Source of the DNA: Longimicrobiales bacterium
Lineage (GTDB): Bacteria; Gemmatimonadota; Gemmatimonadetes; Longimicrobiales; Gaopeijiaceae
DNA: 64,000 nucleotides
Assembly (NCBI GenBank): GCA_965248195.1
Contig: CBDFIQ010000001.1
Coordinates: 1,344,001 to 1,408,000 of the forward strand
Direction: 5' to 3'
The translations under genes were made by a program, and so were the position numbers. How positions within the stretch are numbered: position 1 is the first letter of the stretch; each line of letters opens with the position of its first letter. This document shows, piece after piece, positions 10,475 through 50,732 of the stretch. A model generated the notes under the pieces. That model saw only the letters and a list, made by a program, of their open reading frames with translations. It made no database searches and was not told the origin of the DNA.

Positions 10475-10638
10475 TCAGTTGGGGTCTCGATACTCAATGC
10501 ATCCGCAGCGCGCACCCGGACACGTTGTCCAGCCTCAAGGGCATCGACTGAGGATTCTCGGGTCGGGACCGCTTGCGCTGAGCCCTCCGACGGAAGAGCG
10601 AACATCAGCATCATTAGGGATACGATCGTCCTCATCAT
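10456..10638 (-). pseudogene. Truncated secreted-protein N-terminus
   Basis: Signal peptide MRTIVSLMMLMFALPSEGSAQ, ending inside the 3' end of the convergent gene. Confidence 0.4.
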
Positions 10639-10671
10639 GATCCGAACCAGGAGAATCCTCTATACGTCAGA

Positions 10672-10848
10672 TTACGTAGCAACCACCCACCGCACAGTCT
10701 CACTCCAGAACGGCATCGGCAACTCCCGAGGCTCATCCGTCTCGACTTCGAATTCCTCATTCTCAGCCATCATCTTGAGGAACCATGCGTGCGCCTCACG
10801 GGCTGTGTGGTACCCCTGCCACACCAAGTCCGCTTCGGGCTGGGTCAG
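10672..10848 (-). pseudogene. Orphan C-terminal gene fragment containing the second copy of the 7674 repeat (10682..10741)
   Basis: Open frame ...LTQPEADLVWQGYHTAREAHAWFLKMM...EPRELPMPFWSETVRWVVAT*, abutting the YceI stop. Confidence 0.55.
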
Positions 10849-11411
10849 TCCTCGTCCGCGACGGCTTCCGCGTCGATCGTGATGTACACGGTGTCGCCGA
10901 CGACGACACCCCCCCGGTCGATCTTGTCGTTCCAGGACACTCCGAAGTCATGGCGATTGATCTCTGTCTCGGCCAGGAATCCGGCCCGCAGCTTCGGGCC
11001 CTTGTTCACCCATTCGCCGTCCACTTCCTCCCACCATGGCGTCGGCCAACTCCCCAGGTAGCTGACTCGGAGTGGCACTTCATGGGTCACGCCTCGGATC
11101 GTGAGATCACCTCTGACCAAAAAGTCATGGTCTCCGATGATCTCCACACGATCCCCCTCGAACGTGATTTTCGGATGTGACTCGACGTCGAGGAAGTCCG
11201 GAGCACTCAGGTGCACGTCCCGCTCCTGGTCTCCCGTCCAGATGCCCGTCGCATCGATGACCGTCTTCACCGACGACCGCTTCGGGTCGGCCGGGTCGAA
11301 GTCTAGCGTCCCGTGCACGTTCTTGAAGGAGCCTCGCACCCATGTGACCATCATGTGCCGCGTGCGGAACGCTGCTGCTGTGTGACCCGGTTCGAATGTC
11401 CACTTCGTCAT
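10845..11411 (-). CDS. YceI family protein
   Basis: WTFEPGHT, RHMMVTWVRGSF, RDVHL...DFLDVESHPKITF, GDLTIRGVT, INRHDFG. Confidence 0.93.
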   Translation of the reverse strand: MTKWTFEPGHTAAAFRTRHMMVTWVRGSFKNVHGTLDFDPADPKRSSVKTVIDATGIWTGDQERDVHLSAPDFLDVESHPKITFEGDRVEIIGDHDFLVRGDLTIRGVTHEVPLRVSYLGSWPTPWWEEVDGEWVNKGPKLRAGFLAETEINRHDFGVSWNDKIDRGGVVVGDTVYITIDAEAVADED

Positions 11412-11548
11412 TGCATACTCCTTTAGGTGGTTGCGCAGCACCAAGGCTGCGACCGCTGGATACGATCGGCAGTCGAGCAGGTCGCAGACTCCCCACGAGC
11501 ATTCCTATGCTACCCTCGATAAAACGCTGATGCGCGGGCGGTCCCCGC

Positions 11549-12694
11549 TCAGGAGATCTGGACCATCGTTTTGCCAAAGTTCTCGCCGCGCAGCATGCCG
11601 ATAAAGGCGTCCACGGAGCTGTCCAGCCCGTGGGTGACGCTCTCACGATACTTGAGCTTGCCCTCTTTGATCCAGCCCGACATGGTTCGCAACGCCTCGC
11701 CGGCGTCCGGTTGCCGAGCAGCAAGCTCGAAAAAATGGAAGAATCGGAACCCCTCGGTGGAGCCCTCCTCGCCGAGGTCCTTCAGCCCCGCCTCGCGCAG
11801 CCGCTGAAGCGGTGTTGCCTGTTGTTTTTCCCACGGTGCGTTGTTCCTGGCGAGGTTGTATTGGCTCACCCAGCCTGCTACCGGCACGCGGCAACCCGGG
11901 TTCAGCAGCGGGATCACCGCCTCGAGCACTTCGCCGCCAACATTCTCGAAGTAGACGTCGATGCCATCGGGCACGGCAGCCGCCAGCGCGGTGGGAAGGT
12001 CGCCGGCCTTGTAGTCGATGCAAGCGTCGAAGCCGAGCTCGTCGACGACGTAAGCGCACTTCCGAGGCCCGCCGGCGATGCCGACCGCCCGGCAGCCGTG
12101 GATTTTCGCCAACTGCCCGACGACCTGTCCGACCGCACCGCTGGCCGCGCTCACGACCACTGTCTCCCCCGCCTTGATGGTGGCCACGTTGAGCAGGCCG
12201 ACATACGCGGCGTAGCCGGTCATCCCCAGGATGCCGAGCCCCGTAGACGGTGGGCCGAGAGAGCCGTCCCACTTCTCGATGGGCATCGCCTCGTTGCCCC
12301 ACTGCAAATCTTCAGGTGTGCCGACACTGTATTCTTGCCATCCGTAGTAACCCACGACGAGGTCGCCCTCACTCCACCCGTTTGCTCGGCTCTCCACCAC
12401 TTCCGACACGGTGCCACCCACGATGGTGGAGCCTACGCTCCGCTCGTTGTTCATGGCGCCGGAAGCGTCGAGGCCGCGCATGTACGGGTCCAGCGTGAGC
12501 CACTTGGTGTGGAGCAGCATCTGACCCTCGGCGATGGGCGGAACCTCCGCCGTCACCACCTCGAAATCGGAGGGCTTGGGCTCGCCCTCCGGAGTCCTCT
12601 TCAGCACGATCCTGCGATTGACGACCCCGCCGCCTCGGGCACGGTCTTCAACTGGCTCGATCGCGAGTTCTTGTCGCGTCCTGAGTCTGTTCAC
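11549..12694 (-). CDS. NADP-dependent oxidoreductase (MDR, prostaglandin reductase/CurA-like)
   Basis: LDPYMRG, VSAASGAVG, DVYFENVGG, GENFGK; GTG start after GGGAGG. Confidence 0.92.
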   Translation of the reverse strand: MNRLRTRQELAIEPVEDRARGGGVVNRRIVLKRTPEGEPKPSDFEVVTAEVPPIAEGQMLLHTKWLTLDPYMRGLDASGAMNNERSVGSTIVGGTVSEVVESRANGWSEGDLVVGYYGWQEYSVGTPEDLQWGNEAMPIEKWDGSLGPPSTGLGILGMTGYAAYVGLLNVATIKAGETVVVSAASGAVGQVVGQLAKIHGCRAVGIAGGPRKCAYVVDELGFDACIDYKAGDLPTALAAAVPDGIDVYFENVGGEVLEAVIPLLNPGCRVPVAGWVSQYNLARNNAPWEKQQATPLQRLREAGLKDLGEEGSTEGFRFFHFFELAARQPDAGEALRTMSGWIKEGKLKYRESVTHGLDSSVDAFIGMLRGENFGKTMVQIS

Positions 12695-12708
12695 GGTGTT
12701 TGCCTCCC

Positions 12709-13083
12709 TCAGGCGTGCAGATGGAAGACCTTGTTCATGATCTTCCACTCCCCGTCGACTTTTAGCAGCGTGAACAGGTCGGTGTACCGGGAACCAGTCC
12801 AGTTGTCGAGCTCAAGCCGCACGGTGGCGACCGTGCCATTGACGTCGATGCCGGCGATCCGCGCCTGGAGCTCCGTCGCGGGACCGTTCTCGTCGTTCCA
12901 GGCAAAGAGCTGCTGGATGGGGCCGGCGAACAGGTCGGAACCGACATAACCGAAGATGGTCGCGTCCTCGTGGAAGGCGGGTTTCATGTCGTCGCCTCGG
13001 CCGGATTTGGCGCCATCGATGTAGGGCTGGATGGCCTCTGCGATCGCGCCATGTTCAGTCAGGGTGGTAGTTGCAGTAGTCAT
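12709..13083 (-). CDS. NTF2-like / putative lumazine-binding protein
   Basis: AFHEDA, YTDLFTLLKVDGEWKIMNKVFH; RBS AAGGAG. Confidence 0.88.
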   Translation of the reverse strand: MTTATTTLTEHGAIAEAIQPYIDGAKSGRGDDMKPAFHEDATIFGYVGSDLFAGPIQQLFAWNDENGPATELQARIAGIDVNGTVATVRLELDNWTGSRYTDLFTLLKVDGEWKIMNKVFHLHA

Positions 13084-13144
13084 GGGTTTCACTCCTTATT
13101 TAGTGGTGTAAACATCGTGTGTTGTGCGATAGCGGTTATCGCAT

Positions 13145-13363
13145 CTACCACTGTCGCCCTCGATCGACACGTACCAGGTCGGGCAGAATCGGCGCAGCGT
13201 CGTTCGCCATCCTGCGAAACGTCCGAGCGATGTGGAGATCACCTTGCCGCTCTGCCCGTCCCGCGACGCTGAGGAAGATCTCGATTTTCCTATCGGCCGG
13301 GATGATTGGTGCGTCCAGGCCGCGATGGCCTTGCCTGGTGGTCCCGTCTACGATCGTCGCCAT
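13145..13363 (-). CDS. Small hypothetical protein, first gene after a sigma54 promoter
   Basis: 72 aa ORF with RBS AAGGAG. Confidence 0.55.
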   Translation of the reverse strand: MATIVDGTTRQGHRGLDAPIIPADRKIEIFLSVAGRAERQGDLHIARTFRRMANDAAPILPDLVRVDRGRQW

Positions 13364-37393: not shown

Positions 37394-38764
37394 ATGATGC
37401 CTACGGGCACAGGGGTGGTAATGATGCCTACGGCCACCCAGCTGATAATGACGGGGGTGGCTTTTCTGGCGACGATGGGACCGGCTCCTGCACGGGGAGC
37501 AGAGGCACCCGAGCTGGCGCCGGTCGTGCTCCAGGCAGATCCGGCGGACGATCTCTACCGTTCCGCACGGCGAGCCATCAACAATCGTGAGTTCCGTGAA
37601 GCGGCCCGGGTGTTCAATCGCCTGCGCCGCGAGCACCGGGCTTCGGTGTATGTGGGCGACTCGTACTACTGGGAGGCCTTCTCGCTCTTCCGGACCGGCG
37701 GCAATGACCGCATGGAGCGTGCGCTCGAGTTGCTCGGCACGCAGGCAGAGGATTTCGCGAACGCGTCCACGACCCCCGATGTGCCCTCACTCCGAGTCCA
37801 GATAGAGGGGGCGCTGGCCCAACTGGGAAACCCCGATGCCGGGCGCAGAGTCGCGGAGCAGGCCTCCCAGTCCTGCGAGTCCGAGGATCAGGAGCTCAGG
37901 ACCATGGCGCTGAGCGCGCTTCTCAACATGAACGCGGAGCGGGCAGTGCCGATCCTGAGGGAAGTGCTGGAGAGCCGGGATGAATGCTCGATCGAGCTGC
38001 GCCGCCAGGCCGTGTTCCTGGTCTCGCAGCACATGACCGACGAGACGGTGGACATCCTGCTGGACCTCGCTCACCGGAACCCGGATCCCGACCGCGAGGT
38101 GCGCGAGCAGGCAGTCTTCTGGCTCTCCCAGGTGGATTCGCCGGAGGCCGTCGACGCCCTCGAGGACATTCTCAGGACGTCCGACGATTCCGAGCTTCAG
38201 GAAAAGGCCATCTTCGCGCTCTCGCAGCACTCCGGCGCGCGCTCCACGGACATCCTCAAGGAGTACGCGGAGCGGACGGACGCCCCGCAGGAGCTGAGGG
38301 AGAACGCCATCTTCTGGCTCGGCCAGAGCCCGGGTGGAGGGGAGTATCTCATGGAGCTGTACTCCAGCGTGGATACGGACGCCCTGAAGGAGAGGATCAT
38401 CTTCGGGGTGTCCCAGTCAGGCACGAGGGCCGATGGGGATTGGCTGCTCGAGCGTGCCCTCGACGAGTCGGAGTCGATCGACATCCGCAAGAACGCCCTT
38501 TTCTGGGCGGGCCAGATGGGCATGGACGTGAGCATGCTCGCGGACTTGTACCTGAGCGTCGAGGACCGCGAGATGAAGGAGCAGATCATCTTCGCGCTCT
38601 CGCAGAGCCCGGACGAGCGCGAGGCGGCAGACCAGCTCATGGAGATCGCCAGGAGTGAGGAGGACTCCGACTTGAAGAGGAACGCGATCTTCTGGCTCGG
38701 CCAGATCGACGACCCGCGCGTGGCGGACTTCCTGCTGGAGGTCATCCGCAACGGGGGGGCATGA
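37394..38764 (+). CDS. HEAT repeat protein
   Basis: Repeated RxxAxFWLxQ / KExIIFxLSQ units. Confidence 0.9.
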   Translation: MMPTGTGVVMMPTATQLIMTGVAFLATMGPAPARGAEAPELAPVVLQADPADDLYRSARRAINNREFREAARVFNRLRREHRASVYVGDSYYWEAFSLFRTGGNDRMERALELLGTQAEDFANASTTPDVPSLRVQIEGALAQLGNPDAGRRVAEQASQSCESEDQELRTMALSALLNMNAERAVPILREVLESRDECSIELRRQAVFLVSQHMTDETVDILLDLAHRNPDPDREVREQAVFWLSQVDSPEAVDALEDILRTSDDSELQEKAIFALSQHSGARSTDILKEYAERTDAPQELRENAIFWLGQSPGGGEYLMELYSSVDTDALKERIIFGVSQSGTRADGDWLLERALDESESIDIRKNALFWAGQMGMDVSMLADLYLSVEDREMKEQIIFALSQSPDEREAADQLMEIARSEEDSDLKRNAIFWLGQIDDPRVADFLLEVIRNGGA

Positions 38765-38799
38765 TGAGACGCGGCCTCGAGTAGGCACCCCCGGCTAGT

Positions 38800-39472
38800 T
38801 CACCGTGCGTCAAGCCATGCTGTGAGCTTTGATCTTTCGCGGACCAAACCATCCTGATTGAAGTGGTGAACACAATAATGCGCCCATGAATCTTCGAACG
38901 CCATTTCCAGATCACCCGTCACCGAGGGTCGTGCCCAGTCCGATTTCTGCGTAGGTAAACTCGAAACTGCCACTAGGGCGTGCCAGCGCAACGTGGAACG
39001 GTTGGCCGTTAAACTCGTTGATTATCGGTCTGCCGCTGCTCGTCATGATGCCCGGTATATCAACCCTTGCGGTTCTCAGTTCCCAGTTCGCTTCGAGACC
39101 TATCGGAAGAAACAATGTCTCGCAGAATTCCGAGCATGTGGACGCGAATACGGAGAAAAAATTGCTCAATGGTTCGCATGCGCCGCCCGAGACGATTGTT
39201 TCAAGTGCAACCCGTTGGGCCTCATCCGCGCGTTCGTCGATAACGATCAGGCGCTTTCCGTTTCCCTCCGCGATTTCCCCGGGCCACTTGTACAGCCCCG
39301 CCCACTTCAGCCCAGGGAGCGGCGTATCGTTGAAATGGCCTTCAGCGAGGTTGCCGACGAAGGCCGACTCACAATAGCCGTAGGTGCTCGCCAAGTTGAA
39401 CTGGCAACCGCAATTCACAGCGCAATTGCAGTTATCATAAGTTTCGCTCTTGAACAGCCATTGATCAGCCAT
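38800..39472 (-). pseudogene. DUF1326 family protein split by a +1 frameshift
   Basis: N-terminal NCNCAVNCGC; extra base at 38926..38928 gives premature GDG*; C-terminus VTGDLEMAFEDSW... continues in ORF 38800..38991. Confidence 0.75.
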
Positions 39473-39749
39473 CTCGCAGATCTCCTCTAAGCCGTCATTT
39501 TGGGTAGGGTCAAGAGGATATGGTGGGACGTAACTGCTGTCCAGGACGACTTCCGTGGAGACCTGGGCGCGCTCCGGAATCAGACTGCGTTCAACATCCG
39601 AGAGCGGGCCGGTAGGCGCGAGCAGAAGCCCAGAATCCGGAGGAGGGCTTTCGGCCGTCGCCCTCATCCTATCTCTTGATGGCACTCGGTCGAGGCTGCA
39701 TTTCAGGCCGGGAGCTACAACTGGGAGGTCGCCGCAAGTGGGGTGGTGC

Positions 39750-42035
39750 ATGAGACGTCGCGGATATCTCGCCGGTTGGACTGCCACAGTCCTCCTTTCT
39801 CCGGCTGTTGCGAGCGCTCAGTCGATCGAAATCCACGGTCCGCCGGCCCCCACGGGCCGAGAGGTCGTCAGCTGGGACGCCGAGGGAAGAGCCACGGTGC
39901 GGGCGACCCGCGCACTGGTGCCCATGTCGATCGACGGGGTTCTGGACGAGCCCTTCTACCGCTCGACCGCCTCGATACCGAACCTCAAGCAGAGTCTGCC
40001 GACGCCCGGCGCGGAGCCGGCGGAGCGCACGGAGACGTGGATCGGATTCGACGACAACAACATCTATGTCGCCGCACGCCTCTGGGACTCAGCACCGGAG
40101 ACCGAGTGGACCGCGAACGAGATGCGGCGCGATGCGAGCACCATCCGGACGAACGACAACTTCGGAGTGTTCCTCGACACCTATTACGACCGTCGCAACT
40201 CGATCGGGCTCTACGTGACCCCGGTGGGCGGCTTCACAGACCTGCAGATGACGAACGAGGGCAGCCCCAATTTCGACTGGAACGCCGTCTGGGACATCCG
40301 CACGGGTCGCTTCGATGGTGGCTGGACCGTGGAAATCGCGATCCCCTTCAAGTCGCTTCGTTATCGAGCCATCCGAGAGCAGGTCTGGGGTTTGCAACTG
40401 CGGCGCTTCCACGTGCGCAACAACGAATGGAGTCACCTCACGACGCTTCCGTTGTCCGTCACGGGAAACGGCCCTTCGGCCATCTTGCGGATGTCGATGT
40501 ATGGAACGCTCGTCGGTGTCGAGGCGCCGGGGGCCAGCATGAATCTCGAAGTGAAGCCCTACGTGGTCTCCGGGCTCCAGACGGATCGGACCGCCAATCC
40601 CGTCGTGGACAACGAGACCCACGCCAGGGCGGGCCTGGACGTCAAGTACGGGATCACGGAGAATCTCACCGCCGATCTCACCTTCAACACCGACTTCGCG
40701 CAGGTCGAGGTGGACGAGCAGCAGGTCAACTTGACGCGCTTCAGCCTCTTCTTTCCCGAAAAAAGGGAGTTCTTCCTCGAGAGCCGGGGGAACTTCGAGT
40801 TCGGGAGGGGCGGGAGCAGGGGCGGCTTCGGTGGAGGCGGTGCTCCGACATTGTTCTACAGCCGACGGATCGGGCTCCAGAGTGGCCGGCTCATCCCGAT
40901 CATCGCCGGGGGGCGCGTGACGGGGAAGGTCGGCGCGTTCGACATTGGGCTGGTCAGCTTACAGACCGACGACGAGCCGAACGTGAGCGCCGAGTCGACG
41001 AACTTCAGCGTGGTGAGAGTTCGCCGCGATGTGTTCGCCCGCAGCAGCATCGGGGTCCTCTTCGGCAACCGGTCCGCCTCGCTGGTCTCCAGCGGCGCGA
41101 ACCAGACCTACGGCGCGGACGCCTCGTTCTCATTCCTTCAGGACGCTTATCTATCGGGGTACTACGCCGGGACCGCCACGGAAGGCCTCAACGGGCACGA
41201 CCAAAGCTACCGGGCGCAAATGAGCTATGACGGTGATCTCTGGGGGGCGCGGCTCGACCATCTGCTGGTGGGTGACGACTTCAATCCGGAGATCGGGTTC
41301 GTGCGACGTGGCGGGTTCCGGCAGTCCGCTGCCTCCGCCTACTGGAGTCCCCGTCCCGGGGTCCGTTGGATACGGCAGCTCAGCTTCTCGGGGAGCTTCG
41401 ACTATTTCGAGAATGATCGGGCCGGGTTCGTGGAGAGCCGCAATGGAGGCGGGCACTTCAGCATCGAGCTCGAGAACAGTGACCGGTTCTTCGCGGGCGT
41501 ATCCGACAGGTACGAGAACCTCCCGGTGGCTACCGGGATTTCTGGCGCCACGATCCCCGCCGGCCGGTACTCGTTCCGTGACGTTCAGGTGGGCTACACC
41601 TTCGGCTCGCAGCGACGAATTTCTGCCGGGCTATCGGTGCGCCGGGGCACGTTCTACACGGGCGAGATCACGTCGGTTAGCCTGAGTCGCGGTAGGATCG
41701 AAGTGCTGCCGCAGCTGTCCGTCGAACCAGGTATCACACTCAACTGGCTCGACCTCCCGGATCAGCAGACGTTCGCCGGCGAGTTCAATCAGCACGTGGT
41801 CACGACGCGCATCACGTATAGTTTGACGCCCCGCACCTTCTTGAGCGGCCTCGTGCAGTACAATTCGCGGGGCGACCTGCTCAGCGGCAACTTCCGTCTG
41901 CGCTGGGAGTGGGCTCCCGGCAGCGAGCTCTTCCTGGTCTACACGGAGGAGCGCTTCACGGAGACCCTCGACCGATGGGGGGACTTGGAGAACCGAGGCC
42001 TGGTGATCAAAGTGAACCGGCTGCTGAGGTTCTGA
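39750..42035 (+). CDS. CBM9-like/DUF5916 outer-membrane protein (intact)
   Basis: IDGVLDE, EIAIPFKSLRY, NTDFAQVEVD, FFPEKREFFLE, LFYSRRIG. Confidence 0.9.
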   Translation: MRRRGYLAGWTATVLLSPAVASAQSIEIHGPPAPTGREVVSWDAEGRATVRATRALVPMSIDGVLDEPFYRSTASIPNLKQSLPTPGAEPAERTETWIGFDDNNIYVAARLWDSAPETEWTANEMRRDASTIRTNDNFGVFLDTYYDRRNSIGLYVTPVGGFTDLQMTNEGSPNFDWNAVWDIRTGRFDGGWTVEIAIPFKSLRYRAIREQVWGLQLRRFHVRNNEWSHLTTLPLSVTGNGPSAILRMSMYGTLVGVEAPGASMNLEVKPYVVSGLQTDRTANPVVDNETHARAGLDVKYGITENLTADLTFNTDFAQVEVDEQQVNLTRFSLFFPEKREFFLESRGNFEFGRGGSRGGFGGGGAPTLFYSRRIGLQSGRLIPIIAGGRVTGKVGAFDIGLVSLQTDDEPNVSAESTNFSVVRVRRDVFARSSIGVLFGNRSASLVSSGANQTYGADASFSFLQDAYLSGYYAGTATEGLNGHDQSYRAQMSYDGDLWGARLDHLLVGDDFNPEIGFVRRGGFRQSAASAYWSPRPGVRWIRQLSFSGSFDYFENDRAGFVESRNGGGHFSIELENSDRFFAGVSDRYENLPVATGISGATIPAGRYSFRDVQVGYTFGSQRRISAGLSVRRGTFYTGEITSVSLSRGRIEVLPQLSVEPGITLNWLDLPDQQTFAGEFNQHVVTTRITYSLTPRTFLSGLVQYNSRGDLLSGNFRLRWEWAPGSELFLVYTEERFTETLDRWGDLENRGLVIKVNRLLRF

Positions 42036-42115
42036 CTGAGGCTTCTTCAGCCCGTCTCACCAGGGACTGGCCCGCGCCATTGCTGTTGCAGTGTGGCGAC
42101 TGGAGCCGCCCCGCA

Positions 42116-42215
42116 GCTTCATCCACGCCCCCCACGAGGGGGGGGCGACCAATACGAGCAACAAGGCCATCACCAAGGCACCGTTTCAATCCACGCCCCC
42201 CACTAGGGGGGCGAC
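42116..42215 (-). CRISPR. Type I-C mini-array: 2 repeats, 1 spacer (33 bp)
   Basis: Repeat 1 (42183..42215, minus) GTCGCCCCCCTAGTGGGGGGCGTGGATTGAAAC; spacer 42150..42182 GGTGCCTTGGTGATGGCCTTGTTGCTCGTATTG; repeat 2 (42116..42149) GTCGCCCCCCCCTCGTGGGGGGCGTGGATGAAGC. Confidence 0.93.
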
Positions 42216-42229
42216 TACTGCGTACACGC

Positions 42230-43084
42230 CTACTTCTCCAGCACCGTAACCCCATCAGGAATCCGGCTACCGTCCAGACTCACGTCGTAGTCGGCGTAGG
42301 ACCGAGGCACGTCAACGCCCTCCCGCTTCTGGATGATCAAGGCCTCGAACAGCTGGTGGGACGGCGCATTACCCAACGCGTCATCGTGCTCGAACACGAG
42401 GAGACGCCATTTGGCCATACTGCCTGGTGGACGGGCAGCCGACTGATCGAACTGGAACGCTCTATCGAGGGCCTGCCAGACCAGCTCGAGGTCCTCCTCG
42501 TCAAACCCCGTCTGATCCGCCAGGAAAGGATTCACGAAGCCGTGCGCCCGGTAGATGGCGTAAGGTACCGTGAACTTGCGGCCCATCGTCCGCTCCTTCT
42601 CCAAGTCCTTCACATTCGTCACGGAGCTACGCGTGATCGCATGCTCACTAGTTACGATCGGGTCGATCGACCGGGCGAAGGAAAGCTGAACCGGCCCACG
42701 GACCTGCCCACAGTTCACCTCAGTGCTCATCACTGCGCCAAACGTGCGGATGTCAAAGAAGTTGTGGCACATGAAGTCGGTGAGTGCCTGCGCCTTCTTC
42801 TGGTCCTTGGGGAGTCTCCTGGAGACCGGCTTCTCCCCAACGTGTTCGTATGCACGCTCATGGGTGTTGTTGAGCACGGCCTTGTCGGTGAAGTAGATCT
42901 CATGCCGCGGCTCGCTCGTTTTCGTGAGCGCCACGAAGTTACGAATCTTCCGCTTGAGGCAAACGTCGGTCACCAGTCCCTGCCCGGTCTCCGCGTCGAT
43001 GCGGGGGAGGTTCCCGGCATCGGGGTCCCCATTGGGGTTGGCATCGGTTACGTCGAACACGAAAATGAAGTCGTAGCGCTTCAT
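42230..43084 (-). CDS. cas7: Type I-C Cas7 (Csd2)
   Basis: NPNGDPDAGNLPRID, TDVCLKRKIRN, FFDIRTFGAV, GQVRGPVQ, TMGRK. Confidence 0.97.
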   Translation of the reverse strand: MKRYDFIFVFDVTDANPNGDPDAGNLPRIDAETGQGLVTDVCLKRKIRNFVALTKTSEPRHEIYFTDKAVLNNTHERAYEHVGEKPVSRRLPKDQKKAQALTDFMCHNFFDIRTFGAVMSTEVNCGQVRGPVQLSFARSIDPIVTSEHAITRSSVTNVKDLEKERTMGRKFTVPYAIYRAHGFVNPFLADQTGFDEEDLELVWQALDRAFQFDQSAARPPGSMAKWRLLVFEHDDALGNAPSHQLFEALIIQKREGVDVPRSYADYDVSLDGSRIPDGVTVLEK

Positions 43085-43467
43085 GCGGCTGAGTTTGCTT
43101 CCGAGTTTTCGTTGCTCCTTCGCTTTGTGTAGAGAGCTCTCGTCTGGTGGTAGTACCCGAGGGCAAACAGGCCCTGTTCGTTGAGATTGAAATGAGCCGG
43201 AAAGCCATCGAGAGGATCGAGCACTTCCTGAAGGAGTCGCTCTCGGTTTGTTCGATGACCCCCATCCAGCTTCGCTAGATGGTGCTGGTAGGTGCGTAGC
43301 AAACGTGGGAAGACCGTACGGGGCATCGCCGCCGCCGAGCTGTAATAGCTGCCTCGGATCGTGTTGTTCAGCTTTCGGCCCAGGGCGTCCTTTTGAGTCT
43401 TCTCGATGGCCGCGAACGCTCGACCGAGCCGATACGCCGGGCTGGTGTTCTCCAAGTCCAGGCTCAT
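43081..43467 (-). CDS. cas11: Cas11 small subunit translated from an internal start in cas8c
   Basis: In-frame ATG (MSLDLENTSPAYRLGR) preceded by CAGGAGGTGAGT. Confidence 0.75.
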   Translation of the reverse strand: MSLDLENTSPAYRLGRAFAAIEKTQKDALGRKLNNTIRGSYYSSAAAMPRTVFPRLLRTYQHHLAKLDGGHRTNRERLLQEVLDPLDGFPAHFNLNEQGLFALGYYHQTRALYTKRRSNENSEANSAA

Positions 43468-44877
43468 ACTCACCTCCTGGTGTTTGTTGCGGACGAGGTA
43501 CCCCTTGAGGACACAGGCACGGGGGTAATTGATCAAACGGTCGGTGTGGATTCGTCGAACTACGGCGCTGAACAGGCCCTGGGGATACGGGACGCCCTGA
43601 AGCACGGCCCGAAGGAGTGGGCCGGCAAGAACCGGAGGGATCTTCTCTCGGTCCGGCTTGCCCTGCTTGGTCGGACAGGTCTGGTCCAACAACATGCCGT
43701 ACGACGGAAATTCCGGATCCGCCCGTCGTTTTCCAGAAGCGGGCTGGGGCTCTGTGCCGCTATCATCGTGATGCTTCTTGAGGTTGTCGAGGAGATCGCG
43801 CACTGTACCCTGATGAAAGGACCGCACCGATATGCGAGCCGCATTCGGTGCGAGTCCCAACAGATAAAAGCCGGTTCTATCGGGGTCCTCATCGAGGGCT
43901 CCGTACCCACGTCCCGAGCGTAGAGCCCTCAAGAACATCTCGAACCTCGACTTCATGGCCTCGTCCTGAACGTCGCCGCCACTCGAACCGCGGCGGAGGT
44001 ATTGCGCGAGGCAATCCTCGACGGCACTCGGCTTGTCCGTCCAGAACACCACCGTGGTGGCTCCGAGTTGGATGCGGTGCTTGTCCCGCATCGGGCCTTC
44101 GAGAAGGGCGTTGAGGCCCGTGGCATACCGGAAAGCAGCTGATTCGGAGACGGGTGCGTTGTGGCTCTGCGTTTTGCCGAAGGACTCGTAAGCCCCTTCG
44201 TTGAACGAGACGAGGGTGGCGCCTGCGGACTGTGCGCCCGCTACGCCCTTGATCTTCGGGGAATGCGTCTTGGCCACCGGGCCGTATTCACCGGTAACGA
44301 GGCACTGGGCCTCAAAGTCCTCGGACCTTTCCTTCGTGTGGCTGGCCCACCAGGCTCTTACTTCCGGCACGTCATGGACGTAGCCGAGGTCGCCTTGGAT
44401 CTGGAAAACGCCGAACCCGGTGTTGGTGTGCTCCAGCACCGGAAACTGAGCAACGACATCATGGCCCGCAGCGGGATTCCAGTTGGTCAAGAAAGCACAC
44501 ACCGCAGAAAAAGTCGGCGCGTCGATCTCGGTATTCAGTCGGAGGTGCCGATCCCGAAACCCTTCGAAGGCTCTTAGCGCACGGGCACGCTTCTTGGGAT
44601 CGGCATCGTACCCCAGGAGGTAGGCCGTGTTGTCCCAGAGGAAACCGGGGTTGATTCCCGATCCGGAAGACTTCGCCTGCCCGGGCACGAGGACGCGTTG
44701 GGGGCGGAGCTTGCCCGCTTCGTTCTGCCGCGCGTCCTGAATGTCGAAGAGAGTCCCGTCGGGCCGCAGGACGATCTTGAAAGTGATCTTCTGCACGCTG
44801 TGGCCGAATGGAGGGATTTTGTAAGTGGTATCTTCGCTCAAACGATCATAGAGCGCGACCAGTGACTGTAGGATCAT
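43081..44877 (-). CDS. cas8c: Type I-C Cas8c (Csd1)
   Basis: MILQSL..LY, FLWDNTAYLLG, CLVTG, LVSFN..A.ESFGK.Q..NAPV, LGLAPNAARISVR, GLFALGYYHQ. Confidence 0.97.
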   Translation of the reverse strand: MILQSLVALYDRLSEDTTYKIPPFGHSVQKITFKIVLRPDGTLFDIQDARQNEAGKLRPQRVLVPGQAKSSGSGINPGFLWDNTAYLLGYDADPKKRARALRAFEGFRDRHLRLNTEIDAPTFSAVCAFLTNWNPAAGHDVVAQFPVLEHTNTGFGVFQIQGDLGYVHDVPEVRAWWASHTKERSEDFEAQCLVTGEYGPVAKTHSPKIKGVAGAQSAGATLVSFNEGAYESFGKTQSHNAPVSESAAFRYATGLNALLEGPMRDKHRIQLGATTVVFWTDKPSAVEDCLAQYLRRGSSGGDVQDEAMKSRFEMFLRALRSGRGYGALDEDPDRTGFYLLGLAPNAARISVRSFHQGTVRDLLDNLKKHHDDSGTEPQPASGKRRADPEFPSYGMLLDQTCPTKQGKPDREKIPPVLAGPLLRAVLQGVPYPQGLFSAVVRRIHTDRLINYPRACVLKGYLVRNKHQEVSMSLDLENTSPAYRLGRAFAAIEKTQKDALGRKLNNTIRGSYYSSAAAMPRTVFPRLLRTYQHHLAKLDGGHRTNRERLLQEVLDPLDGFPAHFNLNEQGLFALGYYHQTRALYTKRRSNENSEANSAA

Positions 44878-44880
44878 GGC

Positions 44881-45609
44881 TCAGGCCCTGGCGCTCTCGA
44901 GCGCCGGGACGTCGAGCACACCGTCCTGCAATATCGCTCGGAAAAATCGCGGCTGAGCTGTCACCCGCCGTCCCTGACTGGACTCGATGACGGCACCTTT
45001 TGGATCCGGAATGAAAAGGTGATCGTGGAACAGGAACCCCAGATCCTTTGCGCCCCTCAACTCCGTGGGACACCCAGGAAACGAATCAAGGAGCTCAAAG
45101 CTCGCAGGGAACTCCCTGCACCCCAGGTAGGGGTGATGGAAGTACTGTCCCTTCCTGCCACGTCGCTTGAAGGTGTCCAGGTGCTTGGCCTCGGGGTTCG
45201 TTGTCCCAGCCTCCCCCTTGTCCGTCAGCTCCACGTGTGCCTGGATTCCGTAGGACACGTCCCGAAGTAGCAGGGCGGCTCTCTGCTGGCGGTGTTCGTC
45301 AACGGCCATGCCCAATCGCCCAGCACCAGCTTTCATTGCCGCCTCGACGCCAGACTTGCCCCGCATGGGGATCTTCGCGTCGATCTCGTTTCGCCGAATC
45401 TGCGTGCGCCGGATGGGAGCCAACACATGAATCCGGTCAACGACCCACCGCATTTCCGGTTTCCAGTAGATCGCCTCGAGAATGCCACGTGCCGCGCTGG
45501 GGGTCAGGATGTCGTAGGAAACCCGCTCCACTTTCATTTCAGGGCGGTTGAACGAAGCCAGATCCCCCCAAACCCTCAATCGCACGCCATAGGCCATACT
45601 GGACCCCAT
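44881..45609 (-). CDS. cas5: Type I-C Cas5 (Cas5d, crRNA-processing); alternative start 45597
   Basis: FNRPEMKVERVSY..TPSAARGILEAIYWKP, LLRDVSY, AKH..F.RR..KGQ.FHHPYLGCREF. Confidence 0.97.
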   Translation of the reverse strand: MGSSMAYGVRLRVWGDLASFNRPEMKVERVSYDILTPSAARGILEAIYWKPEMRWVVDRIHVLAPIRRTQIRRNEIDAKIPMRGKSGVEAAMKAGAGRLGMAVDEHRQQRAALLLRDVSYGIQAHVELTDKGEAGTTNPEAKHLDTFKRRGRKGQYFHHPYLGCREFPASFELLDSFPGCPTELRGAKDLGFLFHDHLFIPDPKGAVIESSQGRRVTAQPRFFRAILQDGVLDVPALESARA

Positions 45610-45699
45610 TCCCTCATCATCCCCACCACCCCGTCGTCACATGGTCGCCCGCACGTGGTCTCCTCCCGTCGCCGCGGTGGGGCCGCTTACGAGGGGATA

Positions 45700-45715
45700 C
45701 CTACTAAGACGTAGG
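45700..45715. promoter_or_regulatory. Palindrome upstream of cas5
   Basis: CCTAC-TAAGAC-GTAGG. Confidence 0.35.
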
Positions 45716-45897
45716 GAAGGACGGGAAAGTTGCAGGAACGGGTCGAGGAGGGGCGGCTGCGGCGCGCCCGGCTAGAGGATGCTAGTCCCTCAGCTTAGTG
45801 CGGGAGCAGGCGGGATCGGGGACCTAGAGGCTCTACTTCACAGGAATTGCTGCAGTCGTGGCCAACAGGTCGTAGAGGATGGACATCTGGCAGTTCA

Positions 45898-47244
45898 TTA
45901 CCCTCTGAACGTAATGGGGACTTCGATCCATACGGCAACCGGCTCGGTTCCGTTCATAGCCGGGGTGAACCGCAAAACGTCCGCGACCCTGAGGGCAGCT
46001 TCGTCCAACTGCGCCCGGCCTGAAGTCCGGGAAACTCTCGCGTCCCCGACCACGCCGTCGTCGGAAATGAAGAACCAAACCCTCACCGTCCCACCGATTC
46101 CGGCATCCCGAAGCGCAGCGGGATACTCCCGCATCAGGGCTGCCTGGACCTCTTCCCGGTTTGTGATCTCCGGCCGGACGGTCATAGGTGTGAACACAGG
46201 ACCCGCCTGGACTGCCGCCGCGTCTCGCGACTCCACCTGAAGTGGCTCGGGGCTTGTCGTGGGCGCCGACTGACTCGCTGGCGGCTCGACCTCGACGATT
46301 GGCGGGTCCGCTTCTCCCGCCACCGGACTCGTCGGGGGGGCCATGGGCGGATCCACAGCACACGAAGCCACCACGAGCAGTGCTGCGAGCAGTGTCAGTC
46401 CGACGGTACGCGTGTACCGGGGGTCGCGAGTGTCGGTCATGGCAAGGATCCTCTGTTCGATCGATGGGATCGGGCGAGCGAAAGCCAGCGCGCTCAACCG
46501 TGAGGCCGTGCCTCGAGCGCCGATCTCAACAAGAAGCCTGGCGTACCGCTTCACGTCCGCCAATCGGTTAAGGACGCGATGGTCACAGTCGATCTCGATG
46601 GCCAGGCGAAGCCGGTGAACCTGCCACCAGAGAGGGAGGTTCCACGGAAGGAGCGTCAGAAGAAGAAGAGAGAGGCCTGCCAGGCGCGTATCGCCCGCGT
46701 TACAGTGCTCCCCTTCGTGCTGGAGCATCAACTCTTGCTCCCGCGGTGGCATGCCAAACGCCCAGCGCGGCATCACGATCACCGATCGGATCCATCCCAC
46801 GACGCCGGGGCCGAGGTCTTCCGAAACCAGAACGTCCCGGCCATGGAGTTCCGACGGCGTCCAAGTGGACCGGTCCGACCGAAGCCGCAGGTGGGCCCGC
46901 AGGAGGACCGCGGCAACCGCAAGAGTCAGCACCACCCAGCCTGCACCGAGCAGCGTGTCGAGGCCAATGCCGGAGGGTGACGCATCCGCCAACCGCGTAA
47001 TGGAGCCGACGACGGGGATCAGAAGAGCGTCGAGTGGAGTGGAGACGACCGTGCCAAGTGGGAGCGCAGAGGCCGGCGGACGTAGGATCGCGACGAGCGT
47101 ATAGCCGAACGACCCGGCCATCGCTCCAGCCCAGATCCAACGCGTGGGAAAAGCGAACACCCGAACGGCGCGTTCGAAGGCCCACGCCGCTAGTCCCAGA
47201 AGAAGGCTCACGCTCATCACATAGACCATCAGGCTCAATAGCAT
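45898..47244 (-). CDS. M56 family (BlaR1-like) metallopeptidase with TonB C-terminal domain
   Basis: HEGEH, PWNLPLWW...EIDCD, RILAM; C-terminal YPAALRDAGIGGTV...LDEAAL...FTPA. Confidence 0.92.
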   Translation of the reverse strand: MLLSLMVYVMSVSLLLGLAAWAFERAVRVFAFPTRWIWAGAMAGSFGYTLVAILRPPASALPLGTVVSTPLDALLIPVVGSITRLADASPSGIGLDTLLGAGWVVLTLAVAAVLLRAHLRLRSDRSTWTPSELHGRDVLVSEDLGPGVVGWIRSVIVMPRWAFGMPPREQELMLQHEGEHCNAGDTRLAGLSLLLLTLLPWNLPLWWQVHRLRLAIEIDCDHRVLNRLADVKRYARLLVEIGARGTASRLSALAFARPIPSIEQRILAMTDTRDPRYTRTVGLTLLAALLVVASCAVDPPMAPPTSPVAGEADPPIVEVEPPASQSAPTTSPEPLQVESRDAAAVQAGPVFTPMTVRPEITNREEVQAALMREYPAALRDAGIGGTVRVWFFISDDGVVGDARVSRTSGRAQLDEAALRVADVLRFTPAMNGTEPVAVWIEVPITFRG

Positions 47245-47633
47245 CAGTCTTCCTCCCCTTCCGAGCCCTCACCCAGACGCTCGTCGACGAGTTGGCGCAG
47301 CCGGTGGAGTTCCCGTTCGTCCATGCCACGGTCGGAAACGAGTTGGACCAGGAGCAACTCTGGCGAGCCCTTGAATACCTTCTTCACGAGCCGCCGTAGC
47401 TCCCGCCGGCCTGCCGCCGTCCAGTCCACGAGAGCGTAGTAACGGTAGGCCCGCCCCTCCGCCTCATGCCGCACATACCCCTTCTCCCTGAGCGTCCTCA
47501 GCACGGAGAGCACCGTCGTGTAGGCGAGGGGATCGCCCAATCGCTCCTGGACCTCTGCGACCGTTGCGGAGTCCAGATCCCAGAGGATGGACATCACGTC
47601 CAGTTCGCGGGGTGTGAAGGTGTCCGGCGGCAT
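47244..47633 (-). CDS. BlaI/MecI/CopY family repressor
   Basis: RELDVMSILW, LAYTTVLSVLRTL.EKG, GRAYRY. Confidence 0.95.
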   Translation of the reverse strand: MPPDTFTPRELDVMSILWDLDSATVAEVQERLGDPLAYTTVLSVLRTLREKGYVRHEAEGRAYRYYALVDWTAAGRRELRRLVKKVFKGSPELLLVQLVSDRGMDERELHRLRQLVDERLGEGSEGEED

Positions 47634-47646
47634 GATCCTACCCTTG

Positions 47647-47709
47647 TTACGGGAATTCTAGTAGCAACATGGGGATTGCCTCCGTCCCTGTCAACTAGAA
47701 AACCCGTAG
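47647..47709. promoter_or_regulatory. Paired candidate BlaI operators
   Basis: TTACGGGAATTCTAGTAG (47647) and inverted CAACTAGAAAACCCGTAG (47692), 14/18 match; TTGACA on minus strand at 47689..47694. Confidence 0.6.
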
Positions 47710-47741
47710 ATGGATTCTCAACACACATCGATTACCACGCA

Positions 47742-47870
47742 GAAATCCCCAGCCTCATCGCCGCTGTGGAGACCCACCCGGATGCGCCCTACAGTTCCAT
47801 GATAGAAGTGCTGGATGCGCTCCACTCCGCAAACGCCGAGCGTATCTCGCTCCAGATGCTGGAGAACTAG
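47742..47870 (+). pseudogene. ExbD-like C-terminal remnant
   Basis: IAAVETHPDAPYSSMIEVLDALHSANAERISLQ*, with no N-terminal TM segment. Confidence 0.6.
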
Positions 47871-47967
47871 GGGAGGCGCGATCAGAGGCGGCGGCATTTT
47901 CGAGGCTGAATGCTAGCATCCCCCGCTCGTTTGAAGGAAATCCAGCCGTAACTGCGTACATTCAGGT

Positions 47968-48885
47968 ATGCCTGCCCCTGTTATTTCGGTCTCTCATCTG
48001 GGAAAGAGCTACGGGTCCACCGTTGCCATGGACGATGTATCGCTTGAGATCCACAAGGGTGAGATCTTTGGCCTGATAGGTCCGAACGGCGCGGGGAAGA
48101 CGACTACGATGGAGTGTGTGGAAGGCCTGCGGAAGGCCGACAAAGGCACGATTTCGGTACTGGGCCTCGATCCGCGACGAGACGCCACTGCGCTTCAGCA
48201 TCGGATCGGCGTCCAGCATCAGGAGGCGCAACTCCAGAAGCGGATCAAGGTTTGGGAGGCCGTTGATCTGTGGTCCGCGCTCTACTCGCACGTTGTCGAC
48301 ACCGAAGCACTCCTGGCTCGACTCGGTCTCGAAGCCAAGCGGAACGCCTGGTTCATGACGCTCTCAGGAGGCCAGAAGCAGAGACTTTTTATTGCGTTGG
48401 CCATGATCCACGATCCCGAAGTGCTCTTCCTGGACGAGGTGACCACGGGACTCGATCCGCAGGCTCGTCGCGCTATCTGGGGACTGATCACGGGCATCCG
48501 GGAGCGCGGCAAGACGGTCTTCCTTACCACACACCTGATGGAGGAAGCGGAACGCCTTTGCGACCGCGTGGCGATCATCGACCACGGCCGGTTGGTCGAG
48601 GTCGGGACACCGGCGGACTTGGTCGAGAAGCACTGCCCGGAACGGGGTGTGGTGTTCACGAGCGTCGGGACCGGCGCGGCCGAGTGTTTGGCTGGGGTAC
48701 CTTCAGTTGTATCGGCGGCGAGTGAGGGGCGCACCCACACGCTTCGGGGCGAGGGTGACGACTTCGTGACCGACGTCATCAACTTCATTGCTCGCGAGGG
48801 CATTCGGGTCGAGGGGTTCCGTACAGAGATTCCTACTCTTGAAGACGTTTTCCTGAAGCTCACTGGCCACGGAATCAGGGACTGA
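47968..48885 (+). CDS. ABC-2 transporter ATP-binding protein
   Basis: GPNGAGKTT, LSGGQ, LFLDE. Confidence 0.95.
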   Translation: MPAPVISVSHLGKSYGSTVAMDDVSLEIHKGEIFGLIGPNGAGKTTTMECVEGLRKADKGTISVLGLDPRRDATALQHRIGVQHQEAQLQKRIKVWEAVDLWSALYSHVVDTEALLARLGLEAKRNAWFMTLSGGQKQRLFIALAMIHDPEVLFLDEVTTGLDPQARRAIWGLITGIRERGKTVFLTTHLMEEAERLCDRVAIIDHGRLVEVGTPADLVEKHCPERGVVFTSVGTGAAECLAGVPSVVSAASEGRTHTLRGEGDDFVTDVINFIAREGIRVEGFRTEIPTLEDVFLKLTGHGIRD

Positions 48886-48888
48886 CCG

Positions 48889-49632
48889 ATGCTGAACGGA
48901 TTCTGGAAGCTGACTTGGGTCGAGACCAAAGTCTTCACGAGGGAGCCGATGGGATTCGTGGTGAGCCTCGCCCTGCCGGTGATCCTCTTCATCCTTCTGG
49001 GGCGGTCCATGAGCTTCGGCCAGCTGGAGACCACCCCCGCGGCTCAGGCTCCGTTCAACCTGCCGATCCTGTTCGCGCTCATCATCGCCCTCCAGGCGGT
49101 AGCTTCGCTCGTCGTGATCATCTCGATCTACAGGGAAGGAGGGATCCTCAAGCGCCTCCGGGCCACGCCGCTTTCCCCCGTGACGATCCTGAGCGCTCAC
49201 GTGTTCGTCAAGCTCGCCTTCACGTTGGTCAGTTTGGGGCTTCTGGTCTTGGCCGGGCGGCAGTTCTTCCCCGGTGCGATGGACGTGCACTTGCCCAGCT
49301 TCACGGCGGCTCTCCTACTGAGCACGCTGAGCATTCTCTCGCTCGGCTTCGTGATTGCCAGTCTCGTTCCCACGGCTCGGTTTGCCCGGCCGATCGTTGC
49401 GGGATTCCTTTATCCGATGATCGCGTTGTCGGGTCTGTTCTTTCCCGTCGAACGGCTCCCGTCCCCGCTTCAGGTCGTCGCGCAGGGGCTCCCCACCACA
49501 CACGCCGTCTCGCTCATGCAGGGGATCTGGGACGGCTCGGGTTGGGGTGCGCACTGGGGGAGCGTGGTGGGGTTGATTCTCGTGTTCGGGGTTTGCACCG
49601 GGCTTTCGACGAAGGTCTTTCGTTGGGAGTGA
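48889..49632 (+). CDS. ABC-2 transporter permease
   Basis: YREGGILKRLRATP, LSGLFFP; six TM segments. Confidence 0.92.
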   Translation: MLNGFWKLTWVETKVFTREPMGFVVSLALPVILFILLGRSMSFGQLETTPAAQAPFNLPILFALIIALQAVASLVVIISIYREGGILKRLRATPLSPVTILSAHVFVKLAFTLVSLGLLVLAGRQFFPGAMDVHLPSFTAALLLSTLSILSLGFVIASLVPTARFARPIVAGFLYPMIALSGLFFPVERLPSPLQVVAQGLPTTHAVSLMQGIWDGSGWGAHWGSVVGLILVFGVCTGLSTKVFRWE

Positions 49633-49790
49633 CTCCCGCGGCCAATGCCGTACCAGAGCAGTAGGTCCGGAAAGCACTCCTTTCGCCTCGTCCGCGGGTC
49701 GGTTACAATACGTACGTGAGGCTACCGCAGTTGTTCGGCGACGCGAAGCGCGCCTGTCGAACAACTGTAATTGGGAGAAGAGGCAAGGCG

Positions 49791-50732
49791 ATGCAACGAG
49801 CCCGTTTTGTAGCGATAGTCGTGGTTCTGGGCGCCACGTTCGGCGCGGAATCCTGGCAGCCACTGGAAGCTCAGGACCCGGCGGATTGTCGGACCCCGCG
49901 AGCGTCTTGCGACGGCTTCGATCGTTTTAGTCTATTCCCCGCGAACACCCCGACTTGGTCGCCGCAGATGATCCGCGATTCAGGCCGGCCGATCGTGCCC
50001 GTCTTCGAAGGTTGGTTTCAGAATGAGGACGGCACCTACACGCTCTCCTTCGGCTACGCCAGCATGAACCTCGAGGAAGCGCTCCACATCCCGCTTGGGC
50101 CGGACAACTTCATTGAGCCGAGCGAGTTCGACGGGGGCCAGCCCACGTACTTCAAGGAAATTCACCGGCGCATTCGCCGGCCGTGGAACAGTTTCATGAT
50201 CACGGTTCCCGCGGACTTCGGAGATCAACGCGTCGTCTGGACACTGCGAAATCACGGGCAGACGTATTCCACCCCCGGGCACGTGATGTCTCCCCACTAC
50301 ATCATAGAGAACCCAATAGCGCCTGCGAGGTACCTGCAAGGGACCGCCAGCGGCTACGCGCCGCTGCTCCGTTTCGACCCGGCCGATCCTTGGGTACAAG
50401 GCCTCGGCGGGACCCGGACGGGTCCGCTCACCGCGAGAGTCGGCGAACCACTGGCGATCTCTGCCTGGGTGAATTCGGGCGAAACACTGTACGAGGGGCC
50501 AGAGAGCTGGCTGTACTGGATGCACTATTCAGGGCCCGGCGAAGTGACTTTCAGCGAAGACGAGGTCGAAGTCCCATTAACTGAGGGCGAGGGAATGGGC
50601 ATGACGAGCGTTACATTTAGTGAAGCGGGGGATTACGTGCTGCTCGTGCAGTCGATCGAAACCCTCCGTAACAGCTTTGAATACCATTGTTGCTTTACCA
50701 ATGGGTGGGTCGAGGTCACCGTCACCAACTGA
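49791..50732 (+). CDS. Secreted hypothetical protein
   Basis: Signal peptide; PVFEGW.QNEDG...SFGY, IPLGPDNFIEP; C-terminal CCFTNGWVEVTV. Confidence 0.8.
   Translation: MQRARFVAIVVVLGATFGAESWQPLEAQDPADCRTPRASCDGFDRFSLFPANTPTWSPQMIRDSGRPIVPVFEGWFQNEDGTYTLSFGYASMNLEEALHIPLGPDNFIEPSEFDGGQPTYFKEIHRRIRRPWNSFMITVPADFGDQRVVWTLRNHGQTYSTPGHVMSPHYIIENPIAPARYLQGTASGYAPLLRFDPADPWVQGLGGTRTGPLTARVGEPLAISAWVNSGETLYEGPESWLYWMHYSGPGEVTFSEDEVEVPLTEGEGMGMTSVTFSEAGDYVLLVQSIETLRNSFEYHCCFTNGWVEVTVTN

Follow-up and report, generated by a model that had tools for sequence, protein, structure and literature searches.

In a stretch of 64,000 nucleotides (nt) from the genome of a Longimicrobiales bacterium (GenBank assembly GCA_965248195.1, contig CBDFIQ010000001.1, forward-strand positions 1,344,001 to 1,408,000; called the window below, with position 1 its first letter), we analyzed a compact type I-C CRISPR-Cas locus. 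The locus lies on the minus strand and reads cas5c, cas8c with an internal cas11c start, cas7, and then a single repeat-spacer-repeat unit. An initial annotation of this DNA had interpreted it as a fixed-guide, non-cutting DNA-binding module, and it is this interpretation that we weigh here.

The first gene, cas5c (44881..45597, minus strand), encodes the subunit that acts as endonuclease on the CRISPR RNA (crRNA) precursor and matches Pfam PF09704 Cas_Cas5d (E 7e-39) and, at 153 bits where the cut-off is 85, NCBIfam TIGR01876. The initial annotation had extended it to an alternative upstream ATG at 45609; the gene and its end at 44881 stand, and the start is more likely the ATG at 45597, since most related Cas5 proteins are 238 amino acids long (13 of the 14 other listed members of the Cas5 90% cluster). 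The protein aligns with the Desulfovibrio vulgaris Cas5c structures (PDB 8dex/7kha, E 3e-64) and retains, as had been claimed, the IYWKP and KH motifs, whose residues we take to be catalytic. The large subunit gene cas8c/csd1 (43081..44877, minus strand) is recognized by Pfam PF09709 Csd1 (E 3e-164), NCBIfam TIGR01863 (475 bits, cut-off 219) and PDB 8dej_I (E 6e-111). Within it lies an in-frame cas11c (43081..43467, minus strand), whose start at Met471 is the ATG at codon 471 of cas8c and is preceded by CAGGAGGTGAGT, containing an AGGAGG ribosome-binding site. The solved Cas11c chain 7kha_K (PDB, 124 amino acids) aligns with Cas8c residues 472-588, Met471 is conserved in the 11 closest of 23 aligned Cas8c relatives, and Cas11c is predicted to be produced from this internal start. 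The backbone subunit gene cas7/csd2 (42230..43084, minus strand) matches Pfam PF05107 Cas7 (E 5e-99) and NCBIfam TIGR02589 (Csd2; 356 bits, cut-off 182).

All three genes are uninterrupted and as tightly coupled as initially described, with a 3-base-pair gap between cas5 and cas8c and an ATGA overlap between cas8c and cas7. Cas8c, Cas5 and Cas7 have canonical lengths and domain matches without an inserted domain. Because cas5c, cas8c and cas7 are intact and the internal Cas11c start is aligned with a solved chain, all four Cascade subunits are encoded, and the earlier claim that these genes suffice for a targeting complex is upheld. The closest of 37 related loci from species-representative genomes is L007, from a Gemmatimonadota metagenome-assembled genome (MAG), with 75% (Cas5), 63% (Cas8c) and 76% (Cas7) identity and the canonical layout cas3-cas5-cas8c-cas7-cas4-cas1-cas2-array. 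A recent transfer was considered on the basis of composition and rejected, as the G/C content of the cas genes (60-61%) is close to that of their neighbors (61-65%).

The array consists, as annotated, of two repeats and one spacer and carries no leader, its first repeat beginning only 14 nt past the cas7 stop. Repeat 1 (R1; 42183..42215, minus strand, 33 nt) is an intact I-C repeat that shares 31 of its 33 positions with that of L007, both differences lying in the loop, and forms the stem-loop with an 11-nt 3′ handle ending in ATTGAAAC that is typical of I-C repeats and that would supply the crRNA 5′ handle; its score with Rfam CRISPR-DR9 (29.4 bits, E 0.0016) is below the gathering score of 45. 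The single spacer (42150..42182, minus strand, 33 nt) has the in-frame reading GALVMALLLVL. Repeat 2 (R2; 42149 to about 42116, minus strand) has two additional C in its stem, and its 3′ tail is degenerate, with one T fewer in the reference. In related contigs from three sequencing runs (X7, X8, X9), where R2 is nearly perfect (window about 42120 and 42138), one added base restores TGGATTGAAGC, and the two extra C are missing in X8 and part of X7. As they are homopolymer-length differences, the oddities of R2 in the reference may be assembly errors. R1 and R2 both fold into an 8-base-pair G-C hairpin, that of R2 being intact. The 14 linker nucleotides that separate R1 from the cas7 stop (42216..42229, minus strand) match the sequence after the cas7 stop of L007, where cas4 starts, at about 10 of 15 positions; this likeness suggests an in-place deletion, of which the linker would be a possible scar. 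An 82-amino-acid open reading frame (ORF) spanning the array, used as a handle for the spacers of relatives, found no match in the protein collection.

None of the genes that would make this a complete immune system were detected. Directly upstream of cas5 lie an M56-TonB gene and a BlaI-like repressor gene, and downstream of the array a convergent DUF5916 gene, so that, as the initial annotation had stated, there is no cas3 in front of cas5 and no cas4, cas1 or cas2 behind the array; no cas3 remnant was found upstream of cas5 either by tblastn or by eye. In the genome (4.86 Mb in 2 contigs, 91.8% complete), tblastn searches with I-C Cas3, Cas4, Cas1 and Cas2 queries from four relatives gave no match at E<=1e-3; the controls Cas5 and Cas7 from the same relatives were matched at 75-76% identity. 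Likewise, Cas3_HD PF18019 and Cas1 PF01867 had 0 matches in the genome, and cas3_core TIGR01587 had only two weak helicase matches there (26 and 23 bits, below the cut-off of 102). Neither a second copy of the repeat nor any other CRISPR-like array was found in the 4.86 Mb. Thus the genome-wide searches extend the absence of cas3, cas1 and further I-C arrays beyond the window: Cas3 is missing, as is the Cas4-Cas1-Cas2 set with a multi-spacer leader array that completes type I-C systems, and the locus is not an adaptive immune locus.

No replacement partner was seen near the locus. Among the 58 ORFs called in the window (>=80 amino acids), 50 were scanned with Pfam and contained no transposase, integrase, TniQ or HNH family, in agreement with the initial statement that the 64 kb holds no tnsABC/tniQ, integrase or HNH gene. 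The TniQ and TnsA/B/C genes that accompany the nuclease-less Cascade of Tn7-like CRISPR-associated transposons are accordingly absent from these 50 ORFs. Across the genome TniQ had 0 matches in a search whose control also matched nothing.

Most related loci retain cas3. The gene is present in 33 of the 37 related loci, or 33 of the 35 with usable upstream flank; of the four cas3-less ones, L012 and L030 have no upstream flank, and L020 and L042 have 10 kb of it. Since the best Cas8c has 63% identity among these loci and at most 59% among 33 further loci from metagenomes, no close homologue with genomic context is available. Within the genus, unrelated genes follow the orthologous BlaI/M56-TonB pair in two genomes (G005, G006), and because only this pair and, separately, the DUF5916 gene are syntenic, neither an empty site nor a cas remnant can be defined.

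Some of the related loci are reduced in other ways. L042 (positions 9273-13200, from a Magnetococcales MAG) is a second Cas3-less I-C locus, with cas5-cas8c-cas7 between a histidine kinase gene upstream and an AAA_13 gene downstream. At least seven repeats follow directly after its cas7, all with different stems and short spacers and all keeping the GCGGATTGAAAC handle; its branch length is 0.60 compared to 0.27 in a complete sister locus, and in its genome the Cas3 of that sister finds no match, with one Cas1 located elsewhere. A Cas5-Cas8 fusion in L042 was considered and rejected, as cas5 is in a different frame. L014 (Persicirhabdus sediminis) lacks cas4 and cas1 but retains cas3-cas5-cas8c-cas7, the remnant of a cas2 and an array of 8 repeats, and L020 (a Planctomycetota MAG) has cas4-cas1-cas2 and an array without cas3 and with a truncated cas5.

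The reduced layout is shared by related strains. Twenty-one public sequencing runs from nine studies contain the stretch: three runs of one study contain all of it and are its probable source, 15 runs from six other studies contain 0.44-0.55 of the sampled words, and the RNA-type runs X19-X21 contain 0.07-0.17. We compared contigs from four runs of four other studies that are ~98% identical to the reference. Record 17 of run X8 covers 41273-45286 with 85 differing letters, from the 3′ end of DUF5916 through the array, cas7 and cas8c into cas5, and record 12 of X7 and record 27 of X9 run continuously from cas8c through cas5 and the intergenic region into M56-TonB, without cas3. Both junctions are covered in contigs of other studies, so the reduced layout predates the split of these lineages and is not an assembly artefact; that near-identical strains have it, and that none of the 11 other species of the genus has a full locus, argues against the remnant of a recent deletion, which had been raised as an objection together with neutral evolution.

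Counted among the differences listed, beside which there are 292 further ones, the cas genes carry 21 substitutions, of which 16 are synonymous and 5 non-synonymous. The resulting ratio of non-synonymous to synonymous changes per site (pN/pS) is 0.10 for these 21 (binomial P 7e-7 against the site proportions), far from neutral. In line with this, the cas8c indels among the listed differences (+15, +9 and +9 nt) are all multiples of three; several of the intergenic indels upstream of cas5 in the related contigs are not, being mostly 1-2 nt long. The cas genes have thus been under purifying selection since the strains split. In a tree of concatenated Cas5, Cas8 and Cas7, the terminal branch measures 0.31 compared to 0.30 for the complete sister L007; synonymous divergence from L007 is saturated (dS at least 2, or not computable), which makes dN/dS against L007 uninformative. 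Within the 90% clusters we count about 9 amino-acid differences in Cas8c, 8-9 in Cas7 and 6-7 in Cas5. Full-length proteins make up 13 of the 14 other listed members in the Cas7 and in the Cas5 cluster, and five of nine Cas8c proteins with at least 90% identity are of full length and share the same termini. A further relative, about 90% identical, has its Cas7 (P0004) and Cas5 (P0026) on one contig of 7,554 nt.

The spacer copies the signal-peptide region of SusC-like TonB-dependent receptors, a family present throughout the genus. In its own genome we found three partial spacer matches flanked by the protospacer-adjacent motif (PAM) TTC, all in signal-peptide regions of SusC-like paralogues with CarboxypepD_reg, Plug and barrel domains, and a fourth paralogue (C1:1422885) that matches at 25 of 33 positions with CTG in place of TTC. 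Across 12 genomes of the genus, 13 family members differ from the spacer by 4 (G006) to 13 mismatches, several of them synonymous, and none is perfect. As the homology extends across the family and the spacer reads in frame as a signal peptide, it was copied from a family member while acquisition still worked. Searches for phage, plasmid and viral protospacers gave chance-level matches only (E 0.3-1) and no exact 25-mer in viral contigs.

The best target, G000:C2:635277-635312, combines a TTC PAM with 17 perfect PAM-proximal nucleotides (protospacer 635280-635312) and corresponds to codons 14-24 of a receptor gene whose ATG is at C2:635241. No other site in the genome combines TTC with a seed match of at least 11 nt, and for this reason the receptor gene is the most likely binding site. 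The seed-anchored pattern, searched for in 150 further genomes of the family, gave no match. An autoregulatory target at the cas operon was considered and rejected: positions 38000-50000 of the window hold no PAM-flanked site, and the only other 8-nt seed match there, at 44153, follows ACG. The idea that target genes are broken under the guide was likewise dropped, as none of the four paralogues of the genome has a stop there.

Three further irregularities were noted in the receptor family. In an alignment of only 70% identity, a TAG stands in frame beneath the guide-equivalent site in one paralogue of genome G010. The paralogue at G000:C1:292233-295179 shows an apparent frameshift about 53 codons past the guide-like site, and a 247-amino-acid receptor fragment (G000:C2:640247-640990) lies between two tandem receptor/partner gene pairs.

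Upstream of cas5, the intergenic region (45598..45897, minus strand) contains a stretch of 116 nt (45734..45619) that aligns over 119 positions, at 86% identity, with G000:C1:141010-141128, a segment directly before a DUF5916 gene. As these 116 nt copy the upstream sequence of a DUF5916 paralogue, the cas operon stands behind a borrowed 5′ region; the copied stretch probably holds its promoter or 5′ region. A sigma-70 scan upstream of cas5 gave no promoter-like site, with a consensus that may not apply to this phylum. In the related contigs (X7, X8, X9), about 139 extra nucleotides are found right upstream of the cas5 start (window ~45605). The BlaI-like repressor, M56-TonB sensor and DUF5916 genes seem to form a recurring arrangement in the genus (e.g., also at G005:C1:698950-699672). 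At the start of the DUF5916 region lies an element of about 70 base pairs (window 39560-39631) with about 30 copies in the genome at 75-96% identity; it is also present in other species of the genus (about 86-96% identity), is not a tRNA and has no Rfam match, and both a conserved 5′ leader and a small repeat element are conceivable.

Based on established type I-C biochemistry, these features allow the following model. Transcription would start in the borrowed DUF5916-type 5′ region and proceed through cas5c, cas8c with cas11c, and cas7 into the repeat-spacer-repeat unit, where Cas5c would cleave at the base of each hairpin to release one crRNA in which the 33-nt spacer is preceded by the 11-nt handle of R1 and followed by the hairpin of R2. 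Cas5c, Cas8c, Cas11c and Cas7 would then assemble on this single crRNA. Without Cas3, the complex would bind TTC-flanked DNA and form an R-loop without degrading it, and binding at receptor codons 14-24 would dampen transcription of the receptor/partner gene pair at C2:635241-640039. In this model crRNA production, binding and repression at the receptor gene are all predicted steps.

Part of the model has precedents. I-C Cascade without cas3 works as CRISPR interference (CRISPRi) at TTC and TTT PAMs (PMC10865793), and engineered type I CRISPRi represses transcription at PAM-flanked sites (PMC4288209, PMC10865793). Since a Cas3-less I-C Cascade represses and partial PAM-proximal guides regulate (PMC10865793, PMC10120712), non-cutting binding by a single guide is the best supported use of the locus. 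We give about an even chance to the reading that it encodes a selected, non-cutting, fixed-guide Cascade, probably a DNA binder or regulator. Of the initial interpretation, the statement that the locus is not adaptive immunity holds and a regulatory role is plausible; we found no effector supplied in trans and no support for inter-element competition, since mobile elements are missing from the surroundings and the spacer comes from the cell itself rather than from a phage or plasmid.

Several observations weigh against a regulatory Cascade, and some of them favor instead a remnant of autoimmunity, in which a complete I-C system acquired a spacer from the cell's own TonB-receptor gene, the survivors lost cas3, cas4-cas1-cas2 and the rest of the array went separately or in the same period, and what is left decays slowly without function. 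The self-derived spacer from a genus-specific family fits this scenario, as do the resemblance of the 14-nt linker to the cas4 start of L007, which would reflect an in-place deletion, and the existence of other decaying I-C loci (L014, L020). The locus is also sporadic: cas8c occurs in 0 of the 11 other species of the genus, so that no full cas3/cas1 locus exists in them and the locus is confined to one species-level lineage, and in 1 of 36 genomes of the family. Not all strains keep the proteins intact. Three of the nine Cas8c proteins have unrelated sequence past about residue 534, which cuts Cas11c too, and in one of them the N-terminus is also replaced. A fourth has a frameshift in its final codons; of the other two subunits, a single Cas5 stops at 135 amino acids and a single Cas7 begins with a foreign extension. 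In the altered strains an insertion or rearrangement at the cas8c 3′ end is likely, judging from the protein sequences (the altered proteins are P0018, P0020, P0021, P0019, P0012 and P0032; the foreign Cas7 extension joins about 30 nt before the cas7 start). Moreover, the cluster differences (about 24 amino acids at about 2% nucleotide divergence) suggest a rough whole-gene pN/pS of about 0.15-0.25, above the value for the 21 listed substitutions.

The guide-target pair raises doubts of its own. There is no PAM-flanked target near the cas operon (window 38000-50000), and the candidate lies on the other contig. It has seven PAM-distal mismatches. That all of them lie in the last 16 nt is unlikely under an even spread (post hoc Fisher P of 0.003) and counts in favor of the pair. 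In type I Cascade structures every sixth guide position is unpaired, and two of the seven mismatches are at such positions; the five effective ones could weaken the R-loop. As several mismatches are synonymous, the match may be plain homology to whichever family member gave rise to the spacer. The crRNA sequence equals the coding strand, so that the predicted crRNA would anneal to the template strand, covering +40..+72 of the receptor ORF. In a type I-E study, repression within transcribed regions was obtained only by non-template targeting, or by template targeting near the polymerase footprint (PMC4288209), which makes this geometry poor for repression and again agrees with a remnant. Against a remnant speak, however, the purifying selection after the loss of cas3, with 16 of 21 listed substitutions synonymous and cas8c indels in frame, and the preservation of the internal Cas11c ribosome-binding site and start. 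In addition, R1, the spacer and the R2 hairpin are exactly what one mature crRNA needs, the branch is not accelerated compared to the complete sister locus, and the same reduced layout is seen in contigs of four further studies. On balance we regard a functionless remnant as possible and somewhat doubtful.

Purifying selection shows that there is some function, not which, and it would also be expected if Cascade recruited a nuclease, helicase or other partner that is encoded at another place and has escaped recognition, or served a role other than repression, such as recombination or DNA marking. Cas3-less type I systems that work with partners are described, among them HNH fusions, Mu and Tn7 transposases, and an incomplete I-C system without Cas3 (PMC10910872). 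Yet the window scan and the TniQ search, the latter with its unmatched control, revealed no such family, the three Cas proteins are canonical and have no inserted domain, and the neighbors differ in related species, so that no conserved partner gene is visible; we therefore consider this improbable. Finally, the guide might be aimed not at the cell's own gene but at receptor-gene alleles of related bacteria that arrive by transfer, as the closest overall matches are in another species of the genus (G006; four mismatches, TTC PAM). These sites are, however, mismatched at seed position 3, none of the 13 family members is a perfect match, the 150 other genomes of the family hold no seed-anchored match, and incoming DNA would not be removed by binding alone when no nuclease is present; we consider such a role very unlikely. 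The regulatory Cascade thus remains the reading that we prefer.

Compared to known systems, the locus combines familiar parts in a different way. With canonical type I-C (Desulfovibrio vulgaris, L007) it shares Cas5c, Cas8c with internal Cas11c, Cas7, a 33-nt repeat with the same end and the TTC PAM at the candidate target, but it lacks cas3, cas4, cas1, cas2 and a leader and has only one spacer. The CreA (CreTA)/CreR mini-arrays (Shmakov et al. 2023, PMC10120712) are likewise two-repeat units beside cas genes with a PAM-proximal partial guide to a cellular target, on which Cascade alone is expected to act. The match found here is of this type, TTC followed by 17 nt. In contrast, the CreA/CreR units described there belong to complete loci that have Cas3 and normal arrays as well, and their target is either the cas promoter or a neighboring toxin or cargo gene, whereas here the unit is the only array, there is no Cas3 and no local target, and the candidate is a distant receptor gene. 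Non-cutting DNA binding has also been predicted for a Cas3-less I-C system with a Cas8-Cas5 fusion (2023, PMC10910872), to which the paper devotes one sentence, with neither a guide nor a target nor a test of selection; in the present locus cas5 and cas8c are two genes. Engineered CRISPRi, with E. coli I-E after deletion of cas3 (PMC4288209) or Neisseria lactamica I-C (PMC10865793), uses Cascade and crRNA without Cas3 as well, but is man-made and employs perfect spacers on promoters or the non-template strand, in contrast to the natural system and partial template-strand match described here. The dev operon of Myxococcus xanthus (DevT/R/S, Cas8/Cas7/Cas5-like; bioRxiv 10.1101/2023.07.26.550624) shares Cascade-type negative control of cellular genes; it differs in being an eight-gene, self-repressing CRISPR-Cas system, for which no self-derived single guide has been described. 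In the literature searched, supplements excluded, we found no description of a chromosomal Cas3-less I-C system with a single self-derived guide.

Natural Cas3-less type I systems are known mainly where a new partner, such as transposases, HNH or DinG, has replaced Cas3, and the crRNA-like guides known to regulate reside in complete immune loci. The locus would differ from both, provided three points hold together: that its genes are under purifying selection, that its only guide comes from a cellular outer-membrane receptor gene, and that the reduced form is kept across strains. More speculatively, outer-membrane nutrient receptors may double as phage receptors. Nuclease-free Cascades with one hard-wired, self-derived guide might form a recurrent class of heritable outer-membrane-protein switches, with the BlaI/BlaR-type pair setting expression here, an extension that we think rather unlikely. 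As it stands, the locus would be a compact, naturally tuned I-C CRISPRi module with a guide and a partially matched target, a pair that bears on the long-standing question whether self-targeting spacers reflect regulation or accident. If those three points hold, the locus would show that a CRISPR effector can convert fully into a sequence-specific cellular DNA-binding factor.

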